NCBI RefSeq assembly: GCF_025526975.1
Contig: NW_026515685.1
Location: 558,001-591,245 of the forward strand
Source of the DNA: Fimicolochytrium jonesii
Lineage: Eukaryota
Length of the DNA stretch: 33,245 nucleotides
Reading direction: 5' to 3'
Within the stretch, counting starts at the first letter, position 1; every line of letters starts with the position of its first letter. A model generated the notes under the pieces. That model worked only from the letters and a program-made list of their open reading frames with translations, was not told the DNA's origin and searched no databases. Position numbers and translations under genes: made by a program. Positions 1,319 to 33,245 of this stretch are shown here, piece after piece.

Positions 1319-2538
1319 CTACTCCCTCGGATAAAGCACATCATAATGGCCCGGCCGATATAGCAACACCACCTCCTTCTTTCCCTCCTGCACGTCCAAC
1401 GGCTCCAACGGTTCTATCTCATGGTAATTGACAGTCCCTGACGAATCGGTAAGCGTCGGGTCAAGGTTGGCGATGCGGACGGTGACGCCTAGGGCGGTGG
1501 CGATGGCTACTATGTGGGGTTGGTCGGCTTCGATGTTCACTTTGGGGGGGAATGGGGGTGGTTAGCAGAGCGTGAAGGGGAGGAGAGAGCAGAGGGATGG
1601 GCACTCACTAGGCTCAACTTGAGAGGAGATGAAGAGGTCGAGGGAGGGGTAGCTGTCTAGGATGAAGGCTTCGAAGAGGTCTCGGTTCTAGCAACGGTGC
1701 GATGTGTGATGAGAAAATTTTCCCATCGCTTCTTCCCATGCCGCACCCCACACCGCACCATAACCCACCTTCTTCAAAACAGCAGCAGTGACCAATCTCA
1801 AATAACACACAATCGTATCACTCACATACTCCGTCCGCATCTTCTCCAACAACGTTTCCCCACCCTCCCCACCCTCCGTCTGTCCTCCCTCTTCCCCCAC
1901 CGGCCTTAACACCCCCTCAAAAACCTCCCAAAAATCCTCCAGCAACCCCACATCATACCCGACCTCGCCCAGCACGCCCCTTGTCCCCTCCGCCCGCTTC
2001 ACAACAGCCTTCGCCCAGGGTGTGTCGGAATGTTGATGTAAGAGCTCGCAGAGACGGAAGGAGAAAGCCCGGTAGAAGCAGTTACCGTCGCGTTTTGCGG
2101 TGCGGATGCCTGTGCTGGTTGAGGAGAGGTTGTGGGCTTTGGAGAGGAAGACTGGGGAGAGGGCGTATTCCTACATGAATAGACATACATTAGTATCTGA
2201 TGGGGAATGGACAAGGGAATTTCGGGACGTACGGCTAATAATCCATCAAACCCTGTCACATCGCCAATGAGAGGTGTATCCCCGACCTCGGCGGCTTTGA
2301 TTGCTTTTTCGTATTGAAGGATCTCTTCGTCTGTGGGGCGGTCGTAGGCTGGTGGTGGTGCGTTTGCTGAGGAGGAAAGATGCGTTGGTAGTTGAGGATG
2401 GGTTAGCGGATGCGGATGGGATGGATTCGTCGGTTGGTGGCATTTTGACGGTCCGGAGTGGGTGGGAGCGCTGTCTGCTGGATTTGATGTGGGTGAGAAT
2501 TGAGGTGGATGTTCTCTAGATGCAGAGGTCGATGTCAT
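1319..2538 (-). CDS. Otubain-family OTU deubiquitinase (peptidase C65), multi-exon
   Basis: Catalytic loop RDGNCFYRAF read on the minus strand at about 2063-2092; SDTIVCYLRLVTAA; EADQPHIVAIATALGV; C-terminal His box LLYRPGHYDVLY. Start codon and some exon borders are approximate. Confidence 0.9.
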
Positions 2539-3437
2539 GGGTTGCTGGGAGTGATCTTGGAAGTTGGTCTCGAGGGGCCTTGTTGACGCGTGAAGAAGCC
2601 TCGGCCATTCGAACCTACTCCCCTATTCCCTCCGCCCCTTATCTGCGCTCAACCCCTCTGATCCAAGAACCCCTTCCCCCCACCACAATCAAGGATCAAG
2701 GTTGTATTATATACAAACACAGCATCGAGAAAAGGCGAAAAGAAAATCGAAAGGGAACTGGGCGGAAAGAAACCGGGGTGAAGAAAACTGACAAATGTGA
2801 AACCTTCAAACGGGAACGAAACCGGGAGATTAGAAAAGGGTTGGGATGGTGGGTAGGCGGGGAAACCCTGCGATCGAGTGGCGAGAAACCGCAGGGATGT
2901 CTAAAGTAAGTAAAAAAGATGAGCGGATAACGGTTGCGAGGGGTTATAGGGGAACTTTCTTTCTCTTTCTCGACGGGGAGGGGGATGGTGGGAAGATGAC
3001 GTTTTCTTTGTAATGCCGCTTCGCTCGTTTCGTGGTGGGTTGAGTGTGGGTAGATTGGTCTGTGTGGGATTGGTGGTAGGGAAGGTAGGTCGCGATGCGG
3101 TGTAGAATCAAGTCTCAGATCACGGGGGTTTTCGACCCCATAATCCGTCGCTGGATAGGTTGGCGTACTTTTGTTGGTTTAAGATGTCTTTTTGTGTATG
3201 TTGTTTTTTTCGCCCACGCCTCCCAAGACCTCCAGCAATCGATCTCGATCCCCTCATTCCCCTCCTCCAAACTCTTCCATCCAAGCCCCACCCTCCAATC
3301 CAGCCCACGATATCGAGTGAGGTGGTGTCGAAAAAAAGCGCGCGGACGGTGATTGCGATTGTTGTCAAGCGAGAAAAGAGAAGTTCGAGTCGGCGGTAGT
3401 AGTAGTGGTGTAGTTATTGATTGGGTGTGAGAGTTCT

Positions 3438-4213
<776 letters not shown>

Positions 4214-5847
4214 GGTTTTTGTGTTTTTCCCGGTTTGTTGGTCACTCAAGGGGCGGTCGATAGCTTTTTTGGTCTGGAAATGCACGTGAACGGTAAAGTG
4301 AGCACTTCGTCAGAAAAGGCTTGAAATAGTTTGAAAGTGAAAGTCGGGTGTTTGGCGTGAGAGAATGCGATTCAAACGAATGCGGATGTCGGTCTAGCGA
4401 CCCGTCACAGCGGCCGCTCCACACACGCGCCAAGGCGTTTCCTTCCCTCATGATAGTCCCTGCACTCGGTGTTTCCACGCAACAACAGCAATCCCCGAAA
4501 ATATCACGGGAGGAGGGTTTGCATACCCAACCGTGCGCGATAGTCCGATTCGAAAACGCTAATCCCCGCCAAGTTTGGTGTTTGGCGTTTCCCACGGCCG
4601 ACAAGGAGACACTCACCGGATAATTGACAAGATGAGGGGGGCAAGTGACAGCGCTCTCTCTTTGGCGGGTGCTGATGGAATTAAAGCCCGTATATTCTCT
4701 ACACTCACAGACGGTGGCAGTAACGACCAAATTCTGCAAAAAAAAACAGGTCTCAGGTTAAAGACAGGGACGCGCGGGACCAGCGGCAGTTGTTAAAGTG
4801 GGCGTTTTCACCTATTGAGATATTGGTTCCAGACTGTAGGTGCTTCTGTGAAGGTGTTTTATCCGACCAGCGGCTAGACTCCGGGAGAAAAGGTGATTTG
4901 CGGGGTCTGAAGTGTCTGTGATTTGATAGCCGATGTCTGTCTCTGGTTCCTCTTCAGCGGGCGACGGACGGAGAGAGAGCTTCCTGAGAGGCGTTCTTTT
5001 TGGTCGCGTAACGCCGCAAATCGATTTAGAGCGGCCGCATATGCTGCAGCATTCATTAAGGAGGCTAATCACGGAAGTCGCCCATTCTCCCCCATTGATT
5101 TAGCGCCGTGATCAGAACGCCCATTTTGGACAGCTGCGTCATGGCGTCCTGTTGATAAGAATTGCGAGGCCATGGCGTAAGCAACTCAGCGTGTTCTCCT
5201 GTTGGAGTGGAAGACAGACCGGTTAGGGTTACAGCATCCCCCTGGTATGGCACGTAAATTTGTTCCTTGCCAGTGCTGTCTATCAGGGCTCCCAAAAACC
5301 GCATCACCGCAGTCCTTTCCTGAATCATCGTCTTGCTTCCTCTCAGCATCCGAGACATCAAGTCAGCCTGAAAAGACCTGCATCTTCTCTCGCAAAAAAC
5401 AACGCTATAGGTAAGAGTGTGCGACGCGCAAACGTCCTCAGTTTGGGCGACAGATCATATCCATCTCGCCTTGTCCTTCTTTCCCACGCTCCCGCCACTC
5501 ACATATCAACAACCCTGAAAACGCTAGCTCTAAACGGAGGGTCTCTACTTTTGGAACCACCTGTAGTACAGAAACACCATGAGCCGAGGATCGAGCTGTA
5601 AGTCGTGTCTTCGCTGCCAGCTGGGAATTCTAGTTACGTAGAGGTGGATAGTCCTAACCTGCGAATTTACGCTCGCTCTCAGCCGCCTACGATAGGCATA
5701 TCACTGTCTTCTCCCCTGAGGGATGACTATACCAAGTCGGTAGGTTGGACGATTAAGGTTTTGTGAGTCTCGTACATTTCTGTACAACACGGCCTGAGGT
5801 GAAGATCCATTTTACTAATAAATCAATATCAAAAGCACAAGTCTACT

Positions 5848-8800
5848 CTACACTCGCTTGGGCCCAGGAGCCGATTCAGCAGATCCAGAGGCAGGCGGTG
5901 CCTTCGATTTCGCCGCTAGTCTCCACTTGGCGCCATTGATCATGACTGTAACGACGAGACCAGCTGCCACCCAGGCGATGATGGAAACTGTGAGGAAGGA
6001 TTTCCAATAGCCAACTTCATCTACAAAAGGTTCAATGACAGCTGACCCGACGGCTGCTGCTGGATTGCGGAAGAGACTGTTCAGAGCCACGACTCCCGCG
6101 GCGGATCCGGGAAAGCTATCGATGAGATAGGTCGTGTTGCAGGAGAAGGTCCATGTAAGACCAAAGACACCTATGATCCGAGCAAGAGGACGAGAGCTCG
6201 TCAGTAAACGGCCATGGTTCTCGTCCCCGAGAAGCCATGATAGGGAAATGTACTTACTTATAAACATGGTCAAGAAAAGCACGGCAACATGCCAACGGAA
6301 CGAAGCTGCGAATCCAAACAGGAGTACGCCGAAAGGGAAAAGCACGAGGCCTACCCATTGGCAGCGCACCCGCGTCTCCGGAACAGGTTGACCTTCGGAT
6401 CTCTTGAGGGCGGCTTTTACCGTGCGATCCGCGTAACGGCCCGCGACATTGGATCCCAAAATGAAACCCAATCCGACAGGAATGTAGGAAAGACCCACTT
6501 GCGCCTCGTTATATCCGTACTCGTTCTGGAGGATGACAGGGATAGAGACATTGAAGCAGTAAAACGATCCTAATTCGAGAGAGGAATGCTTGCGATCAGA
6601 AACCCCGTGGTTGGATGAAAACGTCCGATGAGGATTGCGCCACCTACCGAATAAAATGGCAATGTAACTGAGACACAGTACAATGGAAGTGAACCTAAGG
6701 AACTTGAGAGGGGCCAAAGGGTTGTAACGAGCCCTGGACGGATCCCAAGGCTTCATGAGCGGGGCGGGAACAACGATCCACCCTCGTTCCGCGTACGCCT
6801 TCCCGTTCCCAGCCCTAGCTCGGAGCGTCTCTGGCAGAAAGAAAAATATAGCCACCCAGAGGGCGACGCCCAGACCCGCAAGGAACCAAAAGATGGCCTT
6901 CCATCCGGCATAGCGCGCCAAGAAACCCCCAATCAGCGGCCCGATCAACGGTCCGAGTTGAGGCCCCAAAAGAAAGATCCCCATGGCCTGACCACGCTCG
7001 GTGGGCTTGAAAAGATCCACGAGCGTACCCCCTCCAAGGGACTGCACTGATGCGGCACCGGTGGCTTGCAAGAGGCGGAACACGATCAGGTACGCGTACG
7101 AGTTTGTGAACGCAAGTGCGATACTTCCGGCCACGTAGACTGCGAATGAAATGAGATAGACGGCACGGCGACCTGTTCGATCGGCAAGTGATCCCCATCC
7201 CAGCGGCTGTGAAAAGACAAGTTGTACGAAGATGCTCAGATCGGATGCATGAATGAGGTTGATAAACATGGAGAAATGGGGCCGCACGTACCGCGACAGC
7301 GAACATCAACATGAAAATGGAAACGCTGATGTTGATCATCGAGGCGCTGGCATTTAAACTTTGCCCAATGGGTACCATCGCTGGCAACTTGAAACATGGC
7401 GTCAGTGAGTAAAGTGGCCAAGCGGTCAGGCACTTTCACCGCTAATGACCCCTTACATAGATGTTTCCTGCAAGTGGTCCAAGAGCCCCTGCCAACGCCA
7501 CGAGAGCCAACAGACAGTAGCGTCGAGTAGGGGAATATGCACAATAGGGCTCGACGGCTGTTGTTGTCGACGGCGTAGGAGGTCTAGGCCGAGGGGCGGG
7601 CGGTTTTTCATCCTTGAGGGGCACGATATCTGCCTTCACACTGCTAATATGCACGGTAGCTTCTGATATGGACTGCCCCATCGGCGCAAGGGTCTGGGGA
7701 ATGTTGGCTTCGGTTGCGACGTCTGCGGCGTCCCTGAAGATCTCGGTTGCTGTGGAAGGTTCAACCGTGGGTGTAGCGTCTTGTATCGACGACAAGCTGT
7801 CAATCAGCAAGTGGCTAGGTCTTCCATCATCGTAATGAACAACTTGCGGCTCCTCCCCATTGGCGTATCGGGTAGCTTCCGCCCTGGCCATAATGGCGCA
7901 ACGCCCTTGGCGGTCCATCACAACAACATTGTGCCAAGGGGTCGGGATGTGCAAGCTCGTGCTGCCTTCGAAGGCAGGGATGAACGCGTCTTTCGCCAAG
8001 AAGCTACGATGAATAAGCCTCACCCCGAATTTGGGGCCCTCACACGAATGCCCGTGAACGGAGATGCGGAGATGCAATGGGAACAACAGCTCTACCAAAG
8101 CGGAGTAAGCTTGATTGCGGATCATCATCTCGAACGCGATCTTGGTGCAGAGCTTCTTCTGGGCGCTCTTGGAAGGGAGGGCTTGCATTTCAGGCATGTG
8201 ACGCAAATCATCGAGCAAAAAGCGAGAGAAGGCGCGGTACAGCGCCGTCGTAACATGGTCGCTCGCAATGTCCTTGCGCAGGATCGAGCGAGAACTGCCG
8301 GCAAGGACGCATAGGAGTCGACGCGTCTCGTCCGCGATGGGGTTGGTGTCGGCTTGGAGGTGGTGTTCCACTGAGACGGCATACTGCGACGGAAGCTCTG
8401 ATTCGATTCTTGACGCGGACTCCATTACGGAGCGATCCGGGGCGTTGGAATCGGGGAAAGTCATGTCTCTGAGATCGAAGAAGCTGAATAATTCCGGGCG
8501 GCCTGTGGATTGCACGACTTGGGATCTCAGCGTTGCACCGTATTCGTTGACGTTGGCATCAGGTACACCGACTGAGCAAGACAGGATATCAGTCACAATG
8601 GTGATGGGACATTGCACTCAATAACCTTCGGCCACTTACTCAAGTCACTGAACACATGGCCGTCTGACACAATGACAAACTTGGCGCCAGGCGCGTATAC
8701 TTCTCGGATAAGATCTCCGATCGTTACCATCGAAGCGAGAGCAAGCTCTTCCCCTTTGTCAGGGAGATGCCCGAGAACTTTGTCGGCGGCGTTGGGGGAC

Positions 8801-9432
8801 TTGCAAGGGAACCCGGGAAGCATGAATGGAAGTGCCAGATTGCGTTCGATGAAGAAGGCGAGCTTCCTGCCAAAGTGCTCTCGACCCCTGGGATCCCACA
8901 TGTCGATGATGGGCTTGTACCGAAACTCCGAGTCAAAAATGTTCAGAACGGCGTCGACGGTGATTTTGGACTCGGCCGCCGCGGCTTGGAGGCACCATGG
9001 CACCACATGACTTTTGGTGAGCAGGATCCGCGCCAGATACTCCAGAACTGCCGGTTCGCTTTGATCGAGACGGAACAGCGCCGCGCCTTGCACCACGCGG
9101 GAATCAGAGCCATCTCCTGCAGCTCGTTCAAAGATGATCACGGTTTTGGTTTCCGGCGATGTCGGTGAAGCAAGGTCAACCTGATAGGTGTTGATCGCGC
9201 CGTTCTTGCCCAGCGTTTGTCGCCTTCCGATCGAAGCAGCCTCTGCAGAGTGCGGCTCAAGCAGCATCGAGAGGTTCTCTACTTTTCGGGATCCGGCGTC
9301 GTAGGAATAAGCTGCAAAGTGATTTAGGATGCCGAACTCGTCGCAGACATAGCAGAAGGCGACGGCATTGGTAGGGGCGCGATTCTCGGGGTCCGAAGGA
9401 AGCGCAAGAATGGCTTGGTACGGTTCGTTCAT
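5848..9432 (-). CDS. Fusion gene: Dit1/PvcA-family isocyanide synthase (N-terminal) plus DHA1-type MFS transporter (Dtr1-like, C-terminal)
   Basis: Synthase motifs LPGFPCKSPN, LGHLPDKGEELAL, SDGHVFSDL|IGV (intron 8572-8639), RISVH and HIPTPWHN. The same frame continues without a stop into LLALVALAGALGPLAGNIY, then intron 7388-7456 to LPAMVPIGQSL, intron 7207-7291 to PLGWGSLADRTGRR, then ERGQAMGIF...GPLIGPLIGGFL and WKAIFWFL. Two further introns are likely near 6570-6647 and 6170-6260. Stop at 5848. Confidence 0.88.
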
Positions 9433-10173
9433 GTCGCCTTCTTCGTTCTTCTCGTAGATCGCAGCGTACGAAGCTGGATGTATGTAGGAGAGAGATTGTC
9501 CAGCGCAATCAAGGGGAAGAATGATGTAGACAGGAGAGGATGAGGAGGAGGAGACAGCCGGATGTCAAAGAATCGCCTTCTTTTATCGGAGAGACCGGCA
9601 TATTGCTTTACTGTCGTCCGAATAAATTCTGAACGGTCAACAATGAACTTACAGGAGAGTAGCATGGGCAGGAAAGAAGAGAGACCTTGGTCGTCGATCC
9701 TCTTGCGGCTTTTGTGGACGTTAGCGTAATGCGACATCGTGAAAAACTTCAATCAAGAGCCTCTACGTTGGCTCAGACAGTTGAAATGTGGTGGAAGAGG
9801 AAGAAGGCAGGAAAAAGTGCGGGCGGCGATTATACAACTCGAGTGAACAAGCTACTCTCGGAGAGCGCACGGAGAAGCCAGTCGGGCCAGCATTCCCGTC
9901 CAGTCCCCAGCAGGATCTCTGCCACAGGCCTACAGATTTTGGGATGGGGATCGGGGCCACCGTCAAATTGCCTCTCGCTGTGCACAAGGCTGCCGCTGTG
10001 CAATGAGCCACAAGGACACTTTCATGGGGATTATGTACAACAAAAAAAGCGCCCGTCGTCACGGAGTTGGATGGCCAAACGGCCGCGGCATCGCTTGAGG
10101 CAGTTGTGAAAGCAATTGTTTCTGCGGCTCAATCAAGTCCTCGGCAGCAATCTTGCTTGATATGAGTGAGTCC

Positions 10174-10403
10174 ACGCGTGCATCCGAACGCGTGCAATAT
10201 GCCAACATGCGGGATTTCTGCCCAATCAGAAAGTTCTGTGTTTATGAGACGCCATGAGGATGATGAGGCCCCTCATGCCAACTTGCGTTGATTGACCCCA
10301 CATGCGGCATTTCTGCCCAATCAGAAAGTTCTGGACGAGGCGTGTGCGCATTTCGTGGAATGTGTTGTGGCCCCAAACCCAAAACTAAAACGCGTCGACG
10401 CGT
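10174..10403. promoter_or_regulatory. Motif cluster in the divergent intergenic region: four ACGCGT sites and a duplicated 34-bp CCAAT-containing element
   Basis: ACGCGT at 10174, 10188, 10390 and 10398. ACATGCGG(G/C)ATTTCTGCCCAATCAGAAAGTTCTG at 10205-10238 and 10300-10333. Regulatory function is inferred from position only. Confidence 0.45.
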
Positions 10404-10816
10404 GCGGTACACTTACATATGTACACTCCAATACATGAGGCTGCTCACACAGTCATTGCTGGTCGCTCTCCTCTTTTCTTTCCCTCCCCACCGACAGGTT
10501 GCAAAAACAAACGGAACTCTTTCTCCGTTGTACCCACCGCGGCGTGTCGACTGCTCATGCGATGTACAAATTGCAATACAAAAGGGAATTGCGAAATGTA
10601 ACCAAGCGCCAAGCATGGCCCCATGGCCCCGCCGCAGTGCCGCCTCCCAACCAGGCCGCAATTCAGCAATCTGGAAGCAGGATCTCCACCATCCCGTTGA
10701 TGCCCTCTTCGGAATTGCGCAAGTCGGCGACGCTTTAAAGGTCAGTCGACTCTCGACCGCTTCCGCAAAAACACCGCATCTCAAAGCGTTCAGTCAAGCC
10801 CACCCCAAGTGTCAAA

Positions 10817-12904
10817 ATGGAACACTCCGCCGGCGTCGAGGAAGGAGGTGAACAGCGATACCGGGTAGAGAAAGGAGATTCTGCAACCGTCGTAGAAGTT
10901 CATGAGGTGAAGGCTTCCGACACTCGCATCTTCCTCATTGTTGCCATGTAGGTTTGAGAAGGGTGCGGCACACATATTGCGGCTCCTTTATCGTCCATCA
11001 ACGGATTTCATGCCCTCCATCTTGTTAACCGCCCGCCATTTCCCTGCCATTACACAGCGTCACCCTATCCTATGTCATCGTCAACCTCGATGGTTCCTCA
11101 GCGGCCCTCTCAACGATCGGCAAGGCGTTGAACGCTTCGGCGCTCCAACTAGCCTGGGTCTACAATGCCTTCACTCTGCTCTCCACTCCGCTGATTCCCT
11201 TGTGGAGTAAGCTGGCGGACGCTTTCGGCCAGAGGAACATTGTTCTCTTCGGTTTGATTACCTTCCTTGCCGGATCCGCCGGCGCGGGCGCTGCGTCCAG
11301 CATGGCTGTACTCGGCATCTTCCGTGGTGTGCAAGGCCTCGGAAACTCGGCCATCGTTGCCATGTCCCTCGTCATTTTCACTGGTAAGATGCAGATCAAG
11401 ACGCTGTTTGTTTTCTTTTCTCAGAAACGTAGAAAGATTGACTTCATGGCTTTACGACACAGAGTATTACCCGATCCATAAGCGCGGCTTCGCATTCAAC
11501 ATTATCGGTGCCGCCATGGGTTTCACTATGGTAGGAAGGATTCGCATCAAAGCGCAGATGCTGTAACACTTTTCTCACATCTATTGGTTGATAGATCCTC
11601 GGCCCCATCGTGGGCGGATCTATTACCGACAATGCTTCCATGGGATGGCGCTGGAGCTATTGGATTCTTCTGCCACTCACCGGCCTGCTGTTCCCGCTTC
11701 CTGCCATTGTGTCCGGCAAGGCGGACGGAGCAAATTACAAACCCCTCAAGAACATGGACTACCTCGGCTTCATTACACTGGTTGGCACTACCGCATGCAT
11801 CTTGCTTGCCCTTGCATGGGGTGGTAAACAGTACAACTGGGCCTCCGGCCAAATCATTGGCCTCTTCGTCGCTGGAGGAGTCTTCGCTGCCTTGTTCATT
11901 CTCGTAAGTCTCGATAGTCGCAGGATTAGCGGGCGCAGCTGGTGTCTCATACCCGCTCCATCATAGGTTGAGATATTCGTCGCCAAAGAACCCGTTTTCC
12001 CGCCTTACATGTTCCGATCGCTCAACAACAACGCCGTCTTTGGTAAGAGCGGTGCTCCCACGTAGCTCTCGTACCAACAGAATGATTCCTAAAGCCTAAT
12101 ACGCTTCTTCCATTTGTTAGTCATGAACTTTTTCCAAGGTGGTGCGGCAATGGCTTTCATGATGTTTGGACCGATGTATTATAAAGGGGACCTTAAAGAT
12201 ACAGCTCTTCAATCCGCCGTGGACGTCACCCTGGCCATCAACCTCGCCTGGATGGTTTTCGGTATCATCTCCTCTCAGCTCCTCCGCTACGTGCCGGCGA
12301 ACATTCTGGTCATCATCGGGACGGGCTTGACGACGATCGGCACTGGCTTGTTTTCTCTCGCCATTTCTCAAGGGGTGCCTAGCAAGGGCGTTGCCGCCAT
12401 CTACCTCATCATCTTTGGTGCGGGCCAAGGTCTGTCAACCCAGAACTCGTTCCTCATTGCCCAGGCCCACTTGGAGAAAAAGCAAGACTCCAAGTTGATG
12501 TCCAACATTCCCGTCTATTTCCATCGTGTTGGGGGAAGTATCCTCGTTGCGATTTTGTCCGCTATTTACAGTCACGAGAATTCCGCCGCTGCCGCTGCCG
12601 CAATGCCGTCCGGTAGCGGAAACATGGTGAGTCCTCGCTGCATCAGTTACTTTCCTTCCTCCCATTGTAAACCATTGACCGTCTTTCCCACTTTATAAAG
12701 GCCAGCACGGGTATGGACATGGGCGGCGGTTCAACCTCCAACTCCACGATGCCGGCAAGCGGTTCCGCTATGCGCATGGGCAACTCGCGGCCCGGAACAA
12801 CAGCCGCCTTCCGGTGGGCCATTCTGTTCGCTGGGCTCTCCTTCTTGGCGTCCTTTGCTCTCAAGAAGACCTGGATTATCGCTGGCACACGCATGTCCCA
12901 CTAG
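10817..12904 (+). CDS. DHA2-type (14-TMS drug:H+ antiporter-like) MFS transporter, multi-exon
   Basis: Probable ATG at 10817 with a first intron joining in frame to VTLSYVIVNLD...; WVYNAFTLLSTPLIPLWSKLADAFGQR; FRGVQGLG; GGSITDNASMGWRWSYWI; DYLG...LALAWGGKQYNWASG; stop at 12902-12904. Confidence 0.85.
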
Positions 12905-13633
12905 CGCTTTTGCGAGAAAAGTTTCTTTGTCTCATACATACGGAGTAGTGCGATAAAATGCGGAGAAGCAATTATATAAACAGAGGTCATTCTCGTAAAC
13001 TCTTGCATCGTCTGTCATTTTGCATACAATGCGCATCATTCTGTGTCAAAATGGGCAAGGAACGGGTGAAGAGCCTCACATTGAGGGTTTTAACTATAAA
13101 AATAAACTTAAAGGCTTTCTGCATTTATTAGCGCGACATCTGCACGCACTGCATAGAATCGCAGTTCTTTTTCCCATCTAGATTTCAGCTTGCTTGGACC
13201 GCATGTTACCAAGCTACAACCGCAATTGGAAGGGCAGCCCGGAGCCCTCGGAGCCCACGACGGCCCGTACGACAGGAAAGCAATGGCAACAACTCCGCCA
13301 AATTTTGAAGCCCTCTATACTATACGGCCGCGGGAAGTGCAGTGCGGAGCGCAATAACTGCACGTCGGGATGTTGGTGCCCTTTCCAAACGAGCGGCTCT
13401 CAGCAACGGAAGAGGGTACTACACGATCCTCTGCACTGTCACTTATAAACTGAGCTGGCGACTACTACGTACCTAGAGGCGCCCGACAAAGTCCCTTAGC
13501 GGAAAAGTCCACCCATCACATGTAGCGGCTTGCTACCGGGGAGCTTGACATAGTATCTGGAACCTGCAGCAAAACAAGGAAGTAGAGAGACAATATCCTG
13601 GTCATATGAGACACAGATATCAGCAGCTCAACA

Positions 13634-23889: not shown

Positions 23890-25484
23890 ACTTAGCAGTA
23901 GTCGGCAGAGGAAGCAGATGACTGAGAGAACTCTATGTAGTGTGCAGTGCTGTACTGTGAAGTATGTATTGTCTTGTGTAGAAAAGTCTAAAGTGTAAAG
24001 AGGACGCGAGGTCCGAAGGGGAAGAAAAGAGTGAAGTCCCGTACGCGGAAGCGTGGCGTAAGCGGGAGGGGAGTCACGTGAGGAAATAAACTACGGGAAC
24101 CCTAACTGGGGACTCGGGAGGATGATACCTCCAACACCCCCACTCAAACTCACGAGTCTATCTAAGTGAAAAATAAAACAAACAATGAGTACAATGGTGC
24201 GGCCGTACGCGAAAAGCGGGCGGTCGGGGGGATGAACAGCTATGACTAAGAATGAAAGAAATGAAAGAGTAAAATGAAAGAAGAGGGAAACGCCGCGAGT
24301 ATAAAACAAGAGACAGCTGTCAGTCGCCCCAGAGAGGTCAGACCAACGTTCCCCATACTCAACTACCGTATCCCAGACTACCACACGATACGCGAAACAA
24401 TGCAAATGGAGGCAAGAACGGCGGGAGTGGCAAGAAGAGCGGCGACGGCAAGAAGAAGCAAACGGCCCGTATGACGGGAGCGCCCGCAGCCCCTCCAGCT
24501 GCACCTCCTCCGGGACCCTCACGTCCGACTACGCGCTCTACGCGCGCATCGTCCGCGGCGTCCGCAAGCGACTCTTCGAGGTCGAAACCCCGAGTTAGAG
24601 AAGCTCTTCGATTGGCGACGGAGGTATCGACGTTGAGGTACCGCAAGGATAACCATGAGAACCTCGCGAAGCACCTGGCGTTTACGAAGGGGAAACTGGA
24701 TCAATCGAAGCGGAAGAAGGGGTCGTTCGAGGCATTGATGGAGGAGGCAGACTACTTTGGATGTAAGGCAGTCTCGGAGTCGCAATATAAGGCAACAGGC
24801 GGCATCTCGAAAGAAAAGATGAAAGAGACAAAGCGCTGCAGTGATGCGGCCGAGAGACGGGAGCGAGACAAGATGATGAAGCGACTCCAGTACTTGCGAA
24901 CGCACATGGATGACTCGTCTTCGAGTGAGGATGGAGACGGTGACGGAGGAGGCGGGGGAGGTGGTCCAGGGGGTCCGCCTGGTGGAGGCGGAGCCGGAGC
25001 CAATGGAGCCCTTGGTGCCGGGGCAGCGGCGGCTATCACGGTGGCGGGTTAAGGTGCTGAAGTTGTAGATAGTGCCCAGAAGCCGTCCCGGTATGGGTGT
25101 TCCGTGTGTCTCATTCGGACGTAGTCGTCTCCAGCTGTCTGTTGCTAGCGACACGTCCTTCTTGAATTGCTTGAATAAATTTCGTATGTGTCTCGGGAGG
25201 AAAGGGCTTTGTAAAGTAATCAGCCAGTTGTTCCTGCGTCGCGGTGTTGAGGAGTACGACGTCTTTCTTCGCCACGGCGTTGCGTAGCTTGTGGTAGCGT
25301 ACGTTGATGTGTTTGGAGCGTTGAGTAATAGCCGTGGAGTTGGCAATCTCGCGAGCGCTCTGATTGTCGATATGGAGTGGCGTGGGGTCCTTGATGTTGG
25401 CGTATTTGTCGCCGAAGACCTCTGCGATGACCGAGCGGAGCCAGATGACCTTGTTGTAACCGAGGGATGCGGCGATATACTCAG
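23890..25484 (-). mobile_element. 3' part of a Ty1/copia element (RNase H end, 3' region, polypurine tract, 3' LTR 23890-24136)
   Basis: Minus frame 25111-25482 reads EYIAASLG...IDNQSAREIA...RSKHINVRYHKLR...EQLADYFTKPF, the copia RNase H motifs. PPT TTTGAGTGGGGG lies directly before TGTTGG at 24136. Confidence 0.9.
24471..25052 (+). CDS. Antisense ORF of unknown function (193 aa) in the copia 3' region
   Basis: Open ATG-to-TAA frame between the RNase H stop (25111) and the PPT (24137), with a Pro/Ser-rich start, a charged helical middle and a Gly-rich tail. Confidence 0.5.
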   Translation: MTGAPAAPPAAPPPGPSRPTTRSTRASSAASASDSSRSKPRVREALRLATEVSTLRYRKDNHENLAKHLAFTKGKLDQSKRKKGSFEALMEEADYFGCKAVSESQYKATGGISKEKMKETKRCSDAAERRERDKMMKRLQYLRTHMDDSSSSEDGDGDGGGGGGGPGGPPGGGGAGANGALGAGAAAAITVAG

Positions 25485-26891
25485 TGTTATGAATGGGCGG
25501 AGCCGACGGAAATAGAGGCTACTTGTGGTGCAGGTTGTTGACAGGTAATGGTATTCAGACCGAAACAAGAACTAGAACAAGACTAGAAAGAACTGGTGTT
25601 GATCTGCTGGGGGATCAGGAAGTGGGGAGCTCAGGGGAGGCGGCTATTTATGTTTTTCTGGGAAGGCTGGGGAAGCGTGGGGAAGCAGAAGGGTACGGAA
25701 TGAGAGGGAAGCCAAGAGAAGCGCCAAGGGTGGGGAAGCATAGAAACAGAAGACTGGGGATGGGGTGGCTACGCTGAGGCTGTGGGCGGGTACGTGGGGA
25801 AGTATGGAGAAGGGTTTGTAAGCGCCGAGTGTTGGGAGGTGTGGCTACGTGCGGCTGCGTGGAGAAATGAAGGCAGTGGCAGGTGTGGGGTAGCGCGGCT
25901 GCGTGCGGCTGCGAGGTTTGGCAGATGTCTGGTTTTGACAGGGAATTGACATTGACTGACTGTTGGGATGCTGTCATGAGGTAAGCGCATGGTATGGACG
26001 CGTCGTCCATAACATCACCCCCTCCTTTAGCCACGGCGTCCGGATGTTGTTTTGATGTTGGCAGGCTTTGGTCGGGGTTTGTCGGGGTACTTTTGGTGGA
26101 ACTGGGCAACAAGCTCTTGACAGCGGGCAAGGTGTTCCACTGGCTCCCATGTGTTCTCCGAGCTTGGCCAACCCTGCCACTTGATGAGGTACTGAAGGTG
26201 CGTGCGTCGAATACGGGAGTCAAGAATGTCTTCCACAATCCATTCCTCCTGTCCTTCGACTTCTTCTGGTGGGGTGGGTTCTGGCTCAGTTTGCTCCGGA
26301 ATGGTGAAACGTGGTTCAAGAAGGGAGACATGGAAGACGTTGTGAATTTTGTAGGATGGGGGAAGCTTGAGGCGATATGTGACCGAGTTGATCTTCTCCG
26401 TGATTGTGAAGGGGCCAATCTTACGGTGATCAAGTTTCTGGGAAGGTCGGAGAGTCTTGAGATTCCGCTGTAAGAGCCAGACACTGTCCCCGGGTTTCAT
26501 GTCTGGGCCAGGTGCCCTCTTAGGATCGGCAAAGCGCTTCATGCGTCCTTGGGCCTCCTTGAGCTCAGTGGCAAGCTGTTCATGGATTTCCTTGAGATGG
26601 TTGGCACGAGCTTCGGCTGCAGGATTAAGGGATTCGGTTGTGGTGGCGGAAGCCAGACTGAATCGAGGATGGAACCCATAGTTGGCGTAGAAGGGGGTTG
26701 TCTGGGTGGCGGAGTGGATGGTGTTATTGTAAGAGAACTCAGCAGAAGACAAGAGTTCCTTCCAGTTATCTTGTTGATAGTTGCAAAAGCAGCGAAGGTA
26801 TTGCTCAAGAATCTGATTGGTCCGCTCGGTTTGTCCATCGCTCTGGGGATGGAACGCCGATGAGAGGTTGACCTTGGTTCCCAGGAGAGCG
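25485..26891 (-). mobile_element. 3' part of a Ty3/gypsy chromovirus, truncated by telomere repeats; 3' LTR 25485-26014
   Basis: LTR bounded by the perfect inverted repeat TGTTATG...CATAACA; PPT AAAGGAGGGGGTGA; inserted into the copia RNase H. Confidence 0.92.
26027..26891 (-). pseudogene. Integrase C-terminal part plus chromodomain (5'-truncated pol)
   Basis: SSAFHPQSDGQTERTNQILEQYLR; AEFSYNN...TPFYANYGFHP; GPF...HNVFHVSLL; chromodomain WIVEDILDSR...YLIKWQGWPSSENTWEP. Confidence 0.93.
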
Positions 26892-29588
26892 AGGGTTAGG
26901 GTTAGGGTTAGGGTTAGGGTTAGGGTTAGGGTTAGGGTTACAAGACCCCCTGGGTTGGGTTTTATTATTGGGTTGCCTTGAACCCTAGGGACTTAGAAAT
27001 TTTCGAGTTTTCTGGCTTTTGGGTGTGTTCTACAGTTCGAATTTTTGACTCTGAGGGATGTAGTGGCGGGGGGTGTTGCGCACCTAGGCAAGTCGGGGAG
27101 GACTAGGTGTGCAAGGGCAAGTGATGGGTCATATGGGCGGTGGTGCGGGTACGGGGGGCGGCAGGGGTGCCAATAGGGGGGGGGGGTTTGATATAAAGGG
27201 GACATATATGTTATATATACGTTATAGGACTTGTGCAAATTGGGATTCTTATAGTGCCGATCCGGAGTTGGCGTCCTAATTGAAAAGTTGGACCCATATC
27301 ATATTCTCTAATTGAAGTACTCTCGGATTGGGTTAGGGTTAGGGTTAGGGTTAGGGTTAGGGTTACAGGACTGTTCCCGGTTATGGGTTATTTTTGGCCA
27401 TCCAAAAAGTGTCAAACAAAGTTGCTAGCAATGTTCAGGGGCATCTTACTGTAATGTGCTTCAAATTTTGGGGCATGTTTTCCACTCAATGCCCCGGGAA
27501 AATCTGTTTTTCCGATTTTTTACTATGAAAATATTGCCAAAATGCATTTTCTGAAACTCTGAGTGGATGGATTCCGCTTAAAGTGGAATATGTCTCGGAA
27601 AACATCCCCAAAAACATCTAGGAACCTTCATCTACTCTAGTATTCATCAACTCCTGGGTTAGGGTTAGGGTTACAGGACTGTTCCCGGTTATGGGTTATT
27701 TTTGGCCATCCAAAAAGTGTCAAATAAAGTTGCTAGCAATGTTCAGGGGCATCTTACAGTAATGTGCCTCAAATTTTGGGGCATGTTTTCCACTCAATGC
27801 CCCAGGAAAATCTGTTTTTCCGATTTTTTACCATGAAAATATTGCCAAAATGCATTTTCTGAAACTCTGAGTGGATGGATTTCGCTTAAAGTGAGATATG
27901 TCTCAGAAAACATCCCAAAAACATCTAGGAACCTTCATCTACTCTAGTATTCATCAACTCCTGGTACTTTTTGTTTCCAGGCAATATGGGGGTGTTCTCC
28001 AGTTGGCAGCAAATGACCCATTTTGGTTTGCTCTCAATTTGCTCCATGTTCAAATCCTTTTAAGGCCCAAATACTTTCTTTTCTTCCATTGCTCCTCCTG
28101 TTGGTGGAGGATGGCAAATGCCTTTTTGCATTGCAATACATGGATATGACAGGGTGTTTGTCAACCAGCAAATCATGCAAAAAGCATGCAGTGCATGTCT
28201 ATTTGCATGCCCTATGTCATCCGTACCACCTTGGACACCCAAGGAAAGGTATGCGGACTCAAAAGAAAATATACTTACGGAAGTGGAACCAGGGAGATTC
28301 AATGACTATTTAACGAGCTATGGCACACGTAAGTTCCCAGGAGTGGGACTTAGCACAATTTGAGAAAACATATCAGAGGAACTGGAGAACACACTCTTAG
28401 GGTTAGGGTTACAAGACCCCCTGGGTTGGGTTTTATTTTTGGGTTGCCTGGAACCCTAGGGACTTAGAAATTTTCGAGTTTTTTGGCTTTTGGGTGTGTT
28501 CTACAGTTCAAATTCTTTTAGGGTTAGGGTTAGGGTTAGGGTTAGGGTTACAAGACCCCCTGGGTTGGGTTTTATTATTGGGTTGCCTGGAACCCTAGGG
28601 ACTTAGAAATTTTCGAGTTTTCTGGCTTTTGGGTGTGTTCTACAGTTCGAATTTTTGACTCTGAGGGATGTAGTGGCGGGGGGGTGTTGCGCACCTAGGC
28701 AAGTCGGGGAGGACTAGGTGTGCAAGGGCAAGTGATGGGTCATATGGGCGGTGGTGCGGGTACGGGGGGCGGCAGGGGTGCCAATAGGGGGGGGGGGGGG
28801 TTGATGTAAAGGGGACATATATGTTATATATACGTTATAGGACTTGTGCAAATTGGGATTCTTATAGTGCCGATCCGGAGTTGGCGTCCTAATTGAAAAG
28901 TTGGACCCATATCATATTCTCTAATTGAAGTACTCTCGGATTGGCAATCCGTGCGGAAACGGCTTCAGAAACTTAGAAAAACGAAATTTTCACGCGACGG
29001 GGGGTAAAAAGTTGGAAAATGTGGTGATATCTCAACATCTGGCTGACTATCCAGTGTAGGGCACTTAATGAAAGTTGATTGTAGCCTATGGTTTGCATAG
29101 CTGATGTGGTAGCAAATCTTGTGTAACCTTGCTTTTGGCTGAAGAACAGGGCCCCTTTTCAATTCTCAAGTAGTGACCCCCAAGACCTCCTAACAAAAGA
29201 CACGAGTACGTATGTGCAGGCAAAGGGGTTTGGCTGTGTTCTCCAGTAAACATTTTGTGATTCCGCTGTGCATCGTAGACTGTTTGTAGGACCGTTGCGG
29301 AATGTCATTTACCAAAACTGTTAAACATTTTCCGTTTAAAGCAGTGTTCTACAGTTTGTCCATGCAGGTTAGAGCACGTGACCTGGGCTTGCTTGCAGGG
29401 TACGCAGAGTGAGAGGGTTGGGGTTAGAGATTTCCCAGATCACTTATTAAATTCAGCCAAACTGTCTCTGTCATGGAACATTTAAAATGGTGGAAAGTAG
29501 TATTGCATTTATTGATTTAGAGTACATTGGAAAAGCGCACATTCAGAAAAGGGTTTTGGTGTAAAGTTATCAACGACATTCAACAGTA

Positions 29589-30962
29589 CTAAAGGACTTC
29601 CGCAAGCATGTCACGGACTTGGTTCTGTCCAAAAGTCGTACGGCACTCAGGGTACCTGGCGCAGCGGAGACGGAAACGATGCTGACCGCCAATGCTATGA
29701 AAAGCTGAGCCTCCACAGTTGGGACATTGAAGCTGATCACGATGCTGATGGAAGAGTTCACGGATATTGCCAATGGGAGCAGCATCAGGCACTTCCCCAT
29801 CCCCATGACCCCACCAAGCACGAGCAGGATCAATGACGGGTGCAATGCCTTTGAACCATCCGGGATTGAAACCAAAAGAGTTGAGAACATCTCGGAAGCG
29901 CTGACAGTCTGTCACAGTAGTCTGTCTATTGCGATCTCCTCTGAATAGAACTCTGGTGGCAGCGTCCATGATGCCATTGATGAGACTGTAGTACTCTTCC
30001 ACCGGCACAAGCTTCAAGGAGTTTGCGCCCATGTGCTGGAAAATGGTCTCGATCTGGTCCAAATGGAGATTCAAAACCATCTGTTCTGCTGATTCCAACC
30101 TGGCGCACTGAACTCGCACTTCAACTCGCATGCCAGTAATGTGGAGCGGGTGACTGTTGAGCCATTGACGTAAACCTCTCAGTGTCTCACTGCGATCCCC
30201 AATGCTGGACTTGGTTTGGGGCATTCGCGAAGACAAAGTCGAAGAAGAGGCTTTGAGCGCATGAACAAGCTTTGGGTAGCAAGTAACCCGAACATTGGCG
30301 TGACCCGCAATGTCAAAGCGGGTGGACCCAAATCCCTCACCAAGGATGGTGAGCATGGGAAAGGTGGCGCCAACTCCACGTCCATTGTAGCGAACCAAAG
30401 GAATGACCCCATGAGTGTTCAACGTCTGACCAATGTCCCATGTGTTCAGTGCAGCATCGGGATGGTTGCTCACTTCCTGATCAAAGGAATAAGCTGGCAA
30501 AGTCCGAATGCGTTGCTTCATTCCATACTGCACAATGCGTACAGAGGGTGACACAGCACCAATGATGTCCTGGAACCCAGACATCAACAGATTTTGCCGC
30601 CCAGCAATCAATCGTGAGTGATCCGTGCTTTCCCTCACGATGATCGAATGTTCATTGTGAAGTAACTCAAGAATCCTTGCCTTTGACTCTGGATTGAATG
30701 GAATGCTAATGACACAAGGTCTGCTAGCGATCCGCATCCAACCGGCGAAAGCTTCACTGTCCTTGATATGCTGCATCACTCCAGACAGTTCAACCAAGGT
30801 GAAGGCACCAAAGAGGGTGGTCAGCTTTGTGGTAGGGAGCGTAAAGGCCATCCAGTCCACATCAAAGTAGCCAGTACTGCGAAAGACCCCAAACTGCTCA
30901 TCCTGAGGGGCAGGAGAGTGATGGTGTTCCTCATCTGAAGAGCTTGAGCGAGAAGTTGGCAA
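29589..30962 (-). CDS. Unknown protein with a C-terminal C4 zinc ribbon, within the longest A unit; possibly 5'-truncated
   Basis: 457 codons without a stop or obvious intron; CPNC...RLRCARYPEC; AATAAA on the minus strand at about 29508-29513. The frame opens immediately at the telomere junction with a non-ATG codon. Confidence 0.75.
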   Translation of the reverse strand: MPTSRSSSSDEEHHHSPAPQDEQFGVFRSTGYFDVDWMAFTLPTTKLTTLFGAFTLVELSGVMQHIKDSEAFAGWMRIASRPCVISIPFNPESKARILELLHNEHSIIVRESTDHSRLIAGRQNLLMSGFQDIIGAVSPSVRIVQYGMKQRIRTLPAYSFDQEVSNHPDAALNTWDIGQTLNTHGVIPLVRYNGRGVGATFPMLTILGEGFGSTRFDIAGHANVRVTCYPKLVHALKASSSTLSSRMPQTKSSIGDRSETLRGLRQWLNSHPLHITGMRVEVRVQCARLESAEQMVLNLHLDQIETIFQHMGANSLKLVPVEEYYSLINGIMDAATRVLFRGDRNRQTTVTDCQRFRDVLNSFGFNPGWFKGIAPVIDPARAWWGHGDGEVPDAAPIGNIRELFHQHRDQLQCPNCGGSAFHSIGGQHRFRLRCARYPECRTTFGQNQVRDMLAEVL

Positions 30963-30965
30963 CTC

Positions 30966-31014
30966 TTAGGGGTTAGGGTTAGGGTTAGGGTTAGGGTTAG
31001 GGTTAGGGTTAGGG

Positions 31015-31055
<41 letters not shown>

Positions 31056-31116
31056 GGTTAGGGTTAGGGTTAGGGGTTAGGGTTAGGGTTAGGGTTAGGG
31101 TTAGGGTTTAGGGTTA
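30966..31116 (+). repeat. Internal telomeric (TTAGGG)n tract
   Basis: About 150 bp with occasional TTAGGGG and TTTAGGG variants. Shorter tracts lie at 26892-26940, 27330-27365, 27656-27673, 28397-28411, 28518-28550, 31894-31947 and 32519-32556. Confidence 0.98.
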
Positions 31117-31468
31117 CAGGACTGTTCCCGGTTATGGGTTATTTTTGGCCATCCAAAAAGTGTCAAATAAAGTTGCTAGCAATGTTCAGGGGCATCTTAC
31201 TGTAATGTGCTTCAAATCTTGGGGCATGTTTTCCACTCAATGCCCCGGGAAAATCTGTTTTTCCGATTTTTTACTATGAAAATATTGCCAAAATGCATTT
31301 TCTGAAACTCTGAGTGGATGGATTTCGCTTAAAGTGAGATATGTCTCAGAAAACATCCCCAAAAACATCTAGGAACCTTCATCTACTCTAGTATTCATCA
31401 ACTCCTGGCACTTTTTGTTTCCAGGCAATATGGGGGTGTTCTCCAGTTGGCGGCGAATGACTCATTTT

Positions 31469-31893
31469 TGCTATGATCTCGGGGACGGAGGCGGAAGCGA
31501 AGTAGAGAAGACAGGGCGAGAGTGATAGGCGACAAGAGATTTTATTGGCAAAACAAGAAACAAGGACTAGAACAGGAGATGAGAAGAACTGGTGTTGATC
31601 TGCTGGGGAGGAAGGGAACGGACAAAGAGAGGCCGGCTATTTATAGATAGGCAACCCAGCAGATCAGAGAACTACAACAACAAGAGGGGACTGGGGGGGC
31701 ATCAGCTATGCTCCTAGAGCGTGCGTGGCGAGCGTAGAGAGCATTGCTACAGCTGCTGGCTATGGGGAAGTAGTGGGGGGTGTGGAGAAGCCGAGGGGGG
31801 GATTGGCGAAATGAGAGGAGAGAGGAGGAGTGGCGATATTGCAAGAGGATTGGCAAAATGAGAGGAGAGAGGGGGAGTGGCATTGACATTGAC
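31469..31893 (-). repeat. Gypsy-type LTR inserted in a B unit and truncated by telomere repeats
   Basis: Starts TGCTATGATCTC, matches 23537-23889, and ends ATTGACATTGAC (also present in the 25485 LTR) before AGGGTAGGGTTAGGG. Confidence 0.8.
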
Positions 31894-32809
31894 AGGGTAG
31901 GGTTAGGGTTAGGGTTAGGGTTAGGGTTAGGGTTAGGGTTAGGGTTACAAGACCCCCTGGGTTGGGTTTTATTATTGGGTTGCCTGGAACCCTAGGGACT
32001 TAGAAATTTTCGAGTTTTCTGGCTTTTGGGTGTGTTCTACAGTTCGAATTTTTGACTCTGAGGGAGGTAGTGGCGGGGGGTATTGCGCACCTAGGCAAGT
32101 CGGGGAGGACTAGGTGTGCAAGGGCAAGTGATGGGTCATATGGGCGGTGGTGCGGGTACGGGGGGGGGGGGTTGATATAAAGGGGACATATATGTTATAT
32201 ATACGTTATAGGACTTGTGCAAATTGGGATTTTTCTAGTGCCGATCCGGAGTTGGCGTCCTAATTGAAAAGTTGGCCCCATATCATATTCTCTAATTGAA
32301 GTACTCTCGGATTGGCAATCCGTGCGGAAACGGCTTCAGAAACTTAGAAAAACGAAATTTTCACGCGACGGGGGGTAAAAAGTTGGAAAATGTGGTGATA
32401 TCTCAACATCTGGCTGACTATCCAGTGTAGGGCACTTAATGAAAGTTGATTGTAGCCTATGGTTTGCATAGCTGATGTGGTAGCAAATCTTGTGTAACCT
32501 TGCTTTTGGCTGAAGAACAGGGTTAGGGTTAGGGGTTAGGGTTAGGGTTAGGGTTACAGGACTGTTCCCGGTTATGGGTTATTTTTGGCCATCCAAAAAG
32601 TGTCAAATAAAGTTGCTAGCAATGTTCAGGGGCATCTTACTGTAATGTGCTTCAAATCTTGGGGCATGTTTTCCACTCAATGCCCCGGGAAAATCTGTTT
32701 TTCCGATTTTTTACTATGAAAATATTGCCAAAATGCATTTTCTGAAACTCTGAGTGGATGGATTTCGCTTAAAGTGAGATATGTCTCAGAAAACATCCCC
32801 AAAAACATC

Positions 32810-32985
32810 TTAGGGTTAGGGTTAGGTTAGGGTTAGGGTTAGGGTTAGGGTTAGGGTTAGGGTTAGGGTTAGGGTTAGGGTTAGGGTTAGGGTTAGGGTA
32901 AGGGTTAGGGTTAGGGTTAGGGTTAGGGTTAGGGTTAGGGTTAGGGTTAGGGTTAGGGTTAGGGTTAGGGTTAGGGTTAGGGTTA
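32810..32985 (+). repeat. Internal telomeric (TTAGGG)n tract
   Basis: About 175 bp of TTAGGG with rare variants. Confidence 0.98.
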
Positions 32986-33037
32986 CAAGACCCCCTGGGT
33001 TGGGTTTTATTTTTGGGTTGCCTGGAACCCTAGGGAC

Positions 33038-33245
33038 TTAGGGTAGGGTTAGGGTTAGGGTTAGGGTTAGGGTTAGGGTTAGGGTTAGGGTTAGGGTTTG
33101 GGGTTAGGGTTAGGGTTAGGGTTAGGGTTAGGGTTAGGGTTAGGGTTAGGGCTAGGGTTAGGGTTAGGGTTAGGGTTAGGGTTAGGGTTAGGGTTAGGGT
33201 TAGGGTTAGGGTTAGGGTTAGGGTTAGGGTTAGGGTTAGGGTTAG
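33038..33245 (+). repeat. Terminal telomere (TTAGGG)n
   Basis: G-rich strand running to the end of the sequence, the orientation expected at a right chromosome end. Confidence 0.95.

Follow-up and report, generated by a model that had tools for sequence, protein, structure and literature searches.

Every rolling-circle transposon described so far (IS91/ISCR, IS200/605, Helitrons and Replitrons) relies on an HUH enzyme (PMC10288648). Rep_trans enzymes, whose fold is unrelated to that of the HUH group, nick one strand, retain its 5' end on a tyrosine and can rejoin that end to a 3'-OH (PMC5714925, PMC4797284). A 2026 account presents Rep_trans as bacterial with a newly found archaeal sister family, and eukaryotic members go unmentioned in its available text (PMC13107129); no description of a eukaryotic Rep_trans-type element was found in the titles, abstract openings and passages searched; Repbase, supplements and most subscription papers could contain an unclassified entry. 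Here we describe an array of two families of telomere-flanked units, A and B, at the end of a 33,245-nt stretch of Fimicolochytrium jonesii contig NW_026515685.1 (positions 558,001 to 591,245; the whole stretch is referred to as the window). We consider it fairly probable that A represents the truncated 3' portion of a DNA element that targets telomeres and whose predicted tyrosine nickase joins the fixed end of the element to telomeric DNA, and likely that B is a non-autonomous or sister family sharing that end. Relatives in other fungi adjoin telomere repeats likewise, and the group is therefore likely to represent new DNA transposons that join themselves to chromosome ends.

A two-family array alternating with telomere repeats

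Nine units occupy the final 6.35 kb of the window, arranged as A-B-B-A-A-B-A-B-A, the order given in an original prediction made from the sequence alone. As that prediction also had it, all nine start at a fixed base directly behind GGGTTA, at 26941 (A), 27366 (B), 27674 (B), 28412 (A), 28551 (A), 31117 (B), 31948 (A), 32557 (B) and 32986 (A), and each has its own outer end. The A units open with CAAGAC and the B units with CAGGAC, these first bases being all that the two families have in common. Measured to the next telomere tract, the units span 392, 293, 723, 105, 2415, 781, 575, 253 and 52 nt in array order (A: 392, 105, 2415, 575 and 52 nt; B: 293, 723, 781 and 253 nt). All units are co-oriented (minus strand), and no (CCCTAA)2 run occurs on the plus strand anywhere in the window. 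The tracts, on the plus strand, precede the units with lengths of 49 nt (26892..26940) and then 33, 15, 15, 34, 151, 50, 34 and 176 nt (27333..32985), some with variant repeats, and in all eight of these inner (TTAGGG)n tracts GGGTTA is the last sequence ahead of CA(A/G)GAC; a terminal tract of 208 nt (33038..33245) reaches the window end.

The longest A unit, copy 3 (28551..30965, 2415 nt), consists of a 1038-nt 3' region and an open reading frame (ORF). The others are copy 1 (26941..27331, the 3'-terminal ~390 nt of the element), copy 2 (28412..28516, 105 nt), copy 4 (31948..32522, 575 nt, with a 25-nt deletion in a G-rich stretch) and copy 5 (32986..33041, about 55 nt). Family B is represented by copy 1 (27366..27657), copy 2 (27674..28396), copy 3 (31117..31468) and copy 4 (32557..32810); copy 2 is the longest pure B at 723 nt, which falls below the length of the 3' region of A; it contains no ORF of the family described below, and none of the B copies extends far enough to reveal one. 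The unit at 31117 is chimeric, its 352 nt of B being followed by an inserted long terminal repeat (LTR) fragment that starts with TG (31469..31897; 92.7% to 23537-23889 over 354 nt) and is itself cut and telomere-capped. Two short likenesses elsewhere in the window, one of 34 bp between B and 20633-20666 (82%, E 4e-4) and one of 26 bp between the A end and 5221-5246, were judged to be chance.

On the host side the array is anchored in a broken gene. The first tract, at 26892, interrupts a chromodomain Ty3/Gypsy integrase ORF of which the 3' part remains (26027..26891, minus strand; Pfam SH3_Tf2-1 E 9e-22, Chromo E 5e-19, Integrase_p58_C) and which runs into the tract; the LTR of the same element lies at ~25540-26013. 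At the outer ends, element and telomere-repeat sequence overlap at all five testable junctions, by 2 nt for A copy 1, 4 nt for A copies 4 and 5, 2 nt for B copy 1 and 1 nt for B copy 4, against a null mean of 0.6-0.8 (P = 6e-4). This test took junctions at which a longer copy shows how the element continues; that of A copy 2 was excluded because its final bases find no match among the templates in the window. De novo telomeres carry comparable 1-4 nt seeds in 19 of 24 cases in PMC7367193, and we infer that the outer ends were capped by telomerase-type healing from a 1-4 nt seed, in line with the recapping by telomerase that had been proposed. Because the LTR fragment and the integrase gene are capped in the same manner, some truncation points are later breaks, not incomplete copying. 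It is plausible that the array forms a chronological record of additions, an order that insertion into inner tracts followed by later breakage would scramble.

Across shared lengths the copies differ by 0-12 changes, in addition to the deletion in the A copy at 31948. Since they carry substitutions at several positions, the array is not one collapsed repeat; these copy-specific changes, the non-random 1-4 nt junction overlaps and a matching layout in independently assembled sequences from other fungi make an assembly artefact extremely improbable. Two pairs are identical over their shared length, B copies 3 and 4 (253 nt) and A copies 2 and 5 (52 nt), and the differences among the copies look multi-donor, as would be expected if the array had grown solely by recombinational copying in which tracts invade other chromosome ends (break-induced replication, as for Y' elements) and the encoded protein were a passenger. 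Break-induced replication expands MoTeR arrays (PMC7367193) and may have added some units here under any model. As the sole process it is nonetheless very unlikely: it leaves unexplained why about 240 proteins share a nearly invariant set of nuclease-like residues, why the terminal motif persists between families less than 80% identical and between hosts with different telomere repeats, and why some ends are separated from unrelated DNA by no more than 6-16 nt of repeat.

Predicted fold and conserved residues of the ORF product

The sole long ORF in the array (29589-30965, minus strand) is directed inwards, towards the centromere as previously claimed. Its 458 codons are truncated at the 5' side, with no in-frame ATG ahead of the first conserved motif, and encode a predicted Rep_trans/TBP-like tyrosine nickase core and a C-terminal zinc ribbon, a weak match to the latter being the only Pfam result for this ORF. 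Because its start is missing, the window copy is probably not the source of the enzyme. In a profile search (E up to 1e-3) the family comprised 391 representatives, and an OTU protease domain is present in 18 of the 46 family proteins scanned. Of the named relatives the nearest (41% identity over 93%) comes from the chytrid Fimicolochytrium jonesii, in which a pair of adjacent genes is identical; Ceraceosorus bombacis and Pseudozyma flocculosa have multiple copies, and further named members are present in Saitozyma, Kwoniella, Tremella and Papiliotrema. The four closest relatives have a C-terminal domain that was not found in any frame of the array.

The AlphaFold2 model has a predicted local distance difference test score of 91.7 overall and 94.9 in the core (residues 28-305), and its crescent TBP-like sheet topology drew Rep_trans proteins and then TBP as top matches in four structure searches. 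For the core, Foldseek ranked RepDE (4cwc, E 2.8e-4) and RepDN (4cwe, E 4.7e-4) first and second with probability 1.0 and TM-scores of 0.33-0.35, the next unrelated row having E 0.11, and a VIA-align search of 48,161 chains placed RepSTK1 first (Z 6.9, root-mean-square deviation 4.3, 176 residues aligned), followed by RepDE and TBP at 6.0 each; a repeat comparison agreed, the top values across searches being Z 6.9-7.0 with 176-182 residues aligned. When the whole model was compared with the PDB, Rep_trans chains occupied ranks 1-6, and inovirus Reps were among the best rows of a viral library.

As Z values alone are insufficient, the residue pattern supplements the evidence from the fold. Eight residues are kept in 97-99% overall of the 186-248 relatives that could be aligned: D37 (185/186), D177 (234/235), G213 (243/245), K228 (237/245), Y230 (242/246), H235 (244/248), R280 (235/240) and E282 (236/239). 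The putative active site comprises D37 (codon at 30857), D177 (30437), Y230 (30278) and E282 (30122), together with R280. On the predicted strands the conserved residues follow the same order as D46, D142, G180, R189, Y191, E196, R212 and E214 of RepD (PMC4797284), a pairing made by motif and order on a predicted structure and not by superposition, and the first motif reads VDWM in the window protein and VDWL in RepSTK1. Pfam scans of the window, the 46 family proteins and the ORFs of related loci contained no HUH or helicase family, and the confident model of the protein matches the TBP-like fold, which is unrelated to that of HUH enzymes. On the model and the residue pattern, it is very probable that the ORF product combines a Rep_trans fold with tyrosine-nickase chemistry.

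Related fungal loci and a proposed route to the chromosome end

Related loci (L-numbered) were collected by scanning metagenome contigs with a 20-sequence query of the Tremellomycete-type subfamily (n=66); this query found no loci in viral contigs, and a query built from the window's own subfamily found none in metagenome or viral contigs. A C-rich telomere-type tract lies on the coding strand in 20 of the 66 loci and a G-rich tract in none, the chance expectation being 0.05 tract-bearing loci in a Markov control. When the loci are clustered, a tract is present in 15 of 47 clusters at 95% identity and in 12 of 30 at 80%. Where the contig reaches 1300 nt downstream (25 loci), a strict tract occurs in 8 and a loose motif in 17, compared with 0 and 6 on the other strand. 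Most tract-bearing loci share the junction T(G/A)|TAACCC, which reads CTTG|TAACCC in A and CCTG|TAACCC in B of the window. A profile of the 26 nt before the junction, trained on 21 sites with the tail left out, identified 18 further sites, of which 13 run into clear telomere-like repeats (including 6 that duplicate no training site), 2 into degenerate ones and 3, all scoring under 18, into none.

The tails at these junctions range from 6 nt to many repeats, and most are TAAC(4,5). This is the telomere motif of Kwoniella (PMC11185503), and the proteins of TAAC(4,5)-tailed loci cluster with those of Saitozyma, Kwoniella, Papiliotrema and Tremella with support of 100, so the tail matches the host group. 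In a separate clade, L061 has (TAACCC)3 behind CTTG. The window protein clusters with the chytrid protein in the same quick protein tree, its clade having support of 89-93. Ends followed by a variant repeat (TGACCCCC-type) were seen at L036:2466, 5274 and 6029 and at L067:245, suggesting hosts with a variant telomere unit.

The wider layout of the window also recurs. Truncated inner copies are present in L041 and L017, and a second short family occurs in L041 and L047 as a ~60-bp unit ending ...CTATCAA|TAACCCC between tracts (L041:3850-3907; L047:46-99), much as B does here. With several copies per genome in Pseudozyma, Ceraceosorus, Saitozyma and Tremella, and with a conserved, orientation-specific end among the loci, the family has the features of a multi-copy mobile unit; on contigs over 10 kb the gene is nearer the end it points away from in 10 of 13 (p = 0.046, the contigs not being independent). 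Five loci contain self-closing units, head-to-tail or circular (L004, 5.7 kb; L010, 5.5; L013, 4.9; L046, 4.6; L036, 2.8), which encode the family protein with or without an OTU or dioxygenase-like ORF, and no reverse transcriptase (RT); L004, L010 and L046 assemble with terminal overlaps, as tandem arrays would too. The compact 2.8-kb tandem unit of L036 is of Rep+OTU type and has an LTR-like insert inside a tract; a 755-bp unit in L036 considered as a truncated copy was dropped, being this kind of LTR-like insert.

Several further features accompany the relatives. Upstream of the family gene, 14 of the 66 loci (L002, L004, L008, L010, L013-L016, L022-L027) have an ORF of 345-490 aa with the LHLD...PH...R spacing of a TET/JBP-like 2-oxoglutarate-Fe(II) dioxygenase, for which Pfam gave only Tet_JBP at E 0.12 and which could be anti-silencing cargo. 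Past the stop codon of the Rep ORF, tandem repeats of 175-197 bp occur in L003, L004, L009-L012, L016 and L020-L027, several of which contain both an intron-like motif (GTGAGT...CTGA[CT]...AG) and a TT(A/T)GGGG(G)TC box. In the fungal contig L057, an ORF with a SIR2_2 domain (2380-3498, E 7e-18) lies directly past the element end.

The original prediction had taken the units for telomeric retroelements. Of that reading, a telomere-associated mobile element with a fixed inner end is supported and the RNA and reverse-transcription step is not, the ORF not being an RT. The 3'-most ORF encodes the Rep_trans-like protein, not an RT with a restriction-like endonuclease, and no RT, whether of the type in Penelope-like elements (PLEs) or any other, was found in that ORF, in the 46 family proteins (up to 1454 aa; Pfam) or in 219 ORFs (52 + 87 + 80) of related loci, some with 6-10 kb upstream. 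When the array and 12 related loci were scanned with Rfam, hammerheads included, no match was obtained at E 1, and a hammerhead core motif is lacking in A and B and, for 17 of 18 loci, in the final 400 nt.

These negatives bear on a retrotransposition route, in which an RNA with a telomere C-strand 3' end would be copied by an RT encoded upstream or in trans (Coprina-like, or telomerase) and the Rep_trans-like protein would be a nickase or cargo. Several observations fit this route: distal ends are variable even among the longest relatives, a tyrosine nick frees a 3'-OH able to prime an RT, and Rep proteins are said to be among the extra ORFs of Terminons. Many extra ORFs are described for Terminons (PMC5408684), and the polarity and 5' truncation resemble those of MoTeR arrays (PMC7367193) and of PLEs that lack the endonuclease (EN-minus; PMC8557442). 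Beyond the missing RT and hammerhead, a heuristic count of intron-like motifs speaks against an RNA intermediate, since 4 of 6 whole units have the motifs on the coding strand and not on the other, with 2 even or reversed, though PLEs can keep introns. We regard the retrotransposition route as unlikely, and a DNA intermediate of either strand as probable, more so than the joining reaction proposed for A.

For that joining reaction, the predicted chemistry would have Y230 attack a phosphodiester while D37, D177 and E282 hold the metal, leaving a protein-bound 5' end and a free 3'-OH. The strand with its 5' end at the fixed end is the G-rich, non-coding one. The donor would be nicked on this strand at the GGGTTA/element boundary, the nicked strand displaced by host replication, and its 5'-phosphotyrosine end resolved by a telomeric G-strand 3'-OH, provided by the natural overhang or by a nick inside a tract. 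The result would be a fixed inner end, like oriIS of IS91, and an outer end set by the stop of copying or by a later break, which telomerase would cap through 1-4 nt of pairing; repeated rounds would stack the units. We tentatively propose that a displaced DNA strand is ligated directly to the telomeric G-strand 3'-OH, such that ends are extended without an RNA step in alternation with telomerase, and the assignment of nicked strand and acceptor is held at the same level, a little short of even.

The same enzyme could act on the opposite strand in a Helitron-like manner, the C-rich coding strand being inserted whole into tracts with the fixed end as the termination end, and all truncation arising from later breakage and telomerase. 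A model of this kind has been proposed for telomeric Helitrons of Paramecium (PMC13085455), cutting and capping of the LTR-bearing B copy and of the Gypsy integrase took place with no element end involved, and MoTeR arrays break and heal similarly (PMC7367193). It would, however, require a fixed initiation end, and no fixed distal end was found among the related families; nor does a 3' hairpin stand out. We consider this variant improbable, more so than retrotransposition and less so than recombination alone.

A number of points weigh against a Rep_trans-like nickase acting at telomeres. The structural scores are middling (Z under 8, TM 0.33-0.35), with TBP level with RepDE; hhalign of the family profile against RepSTK1 was blank (probability 0.3), PDB sequence searches with the A1, A2 and A6 queries yielded nothing significant, Pfam Rep_trans (PF02486) matched neither the window protein (E 0.1) nor the 46 relatives (E 0.01), and a G2P-like lead from Atlas (0.82) was at chance level. 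At the residue level, the window copy has T228 in place of the conserved lysine, and R140 and D146 of RepD have no conserved counterpart in the family. The link between ORF and fixed end in the window rests on one A copy, and six folds of the A and B ends revealed no origin hairpin that stands out at the fixed end (z 1.22 to -1.86). The related loci are only 23-30% identical to the window protein (best 20) and come mostly from one Tremellomycete-like clade chosen by the query, and 46 of the 66 have no strict tract, many of the contigs stopping too early. L002 and L010 share no outer boundary, each starting elsewhere within a region that extends further in L024/L027, so that the true distal end of the element is undefined and an RT could lie further out.

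If the DNA-only route is correct, it yields arrays that look exactly like those of telomeric retrotransposons, and layout alone could then not assign an array to an RT. Several hundred fungal proteins with the Rep_trans fold on telomere-bound elements would bring eukaryotes into the superfamily and constitute a new class of transposase, and a sequence-specific nickase-ligase of telomeric ends would be a possible tool.

The rest of the window and comparison with known systems

Proximal to the array, a gene for a modification-dependent restriction enzyme of GmrSD type (Pfam GmrSD_N at 21688-22521, E 6e-18, and GmrSD_C at 19013-20674, E 1e-17, both minus strand) and a histone-fold fragment (18244-18558) lie between inverted repeats of 44-61 bp (18217-18261, 22496-22556, 22867-22928) in the region 18217-22928; this is perhaps a prokaryote-type nuclease carried as transposon cargo in a fungal subtelomere. 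The region 5848-15580 contains a DIT1/PvcA-family gene (7442-9564) and a cytochrome P450 (13610-15580; both Pfam), accompanied by two genes that we take to be transporter-like, the whole presumably a dityrosine/isocyanide-type cluster, and an intron-split gene at 3438-4309 is, judging from its translation, presumably a Cdc42-like small GTPase. Nested LTR-retrotransposon debris fills 16329-17852 and 23310-26891, including a Ty3 gag (Pfam), an interrupted LTR (23310-24128), what we take from its motif to be a copia-like RNase H fragment (25111-25518), and the Gypsy LTR and integrase that adjoin the array.

Among known systems, the closest to the encoded protein is the Rep_trans superfamily (PF02486), which includes RepD/RepC of pT181-family plasmids, RepSTK1, inovirus Reps, MOBT relaxases and the archaeal Rep-Arvir. 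Shared with these are the predicted TBP-like crescent sheet and, on the modelled structure, the D, D, E metal set, a tyrosine at the end of a strand that is followed by a helix, and an RxE motif, in the same order. The known members are plasmid and virus proteins, whereas the fungal protein belongs to a chromosome-end element, has about 10% identity to them in structural alignments and lacks a Pfam match. The fungal family also has YP[RK]xxHxxK in place of YxK..E, a long helical insert between the tyrosine and RxE, a C-terminal zinc ribbon and often an OTU domain. The archaeal family was added to Rep_trans on evidence of similar strength before mutagenesis (PMC13107129).

The telomeric Helitrons of Paramecium are likewise rolling-circle-type, telomere-flanked elements with absolute orientation at chromosome ends and non-autonomous derivatives, but they encode an HUH-Y2 Rep fused to a Pif1 helicase in ORFs of 9-10 kb (PMC13085455), compared with units of 2.8-5.7 kb and no helicase found here. 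Tyrosine strand transfer and orientation-specific insertion are common to IS91/ISCR, Helitrons and Replitrons as well. In IS91, oriIS is at the right end and the bottom strand is functional and transferred, the same geometry as a fixed end downstream of the gene (PMC13181058), and Helitrons may carry an OTU accessory domain as the fungal family does (PMC11417382); failed termination lengthens IS91, in contrast to the copies here, which fall short of full length. Fungal DNA transposons carrying TET/JBP genes comprise DDE types and Helitrons, with no Rep_trans-type lineage listed in the accessible text of PMC12730594; one subfamily of relatives has the weak dioxygenase-like upstream ORF, which is absent from the window.

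In overall layout the nearest counterparts are retrotransposon arrays. MoTeR and FoTeR of Magnaporthe and Fusarium (PMC7367193, PMC12857005) also form head-to-tail arrays of two families with 5'-truncated copies, short-to-long inner tracts, LTR elements inserted into copies and healing from 1-4 nt seeds, but MoTeR1 encodes an RT and a restriction-like endonuclease, neither of which was found here. Athena, Coprina and Terminons, which are EN-minus PLEs, share this polarity and also carry telomere repeats of the C-strand at their 3' end. Those elements are defined by a PLE RT and a hammerhead beside the repeats (PMC8557442), features not found in the array or in the related loci examined.

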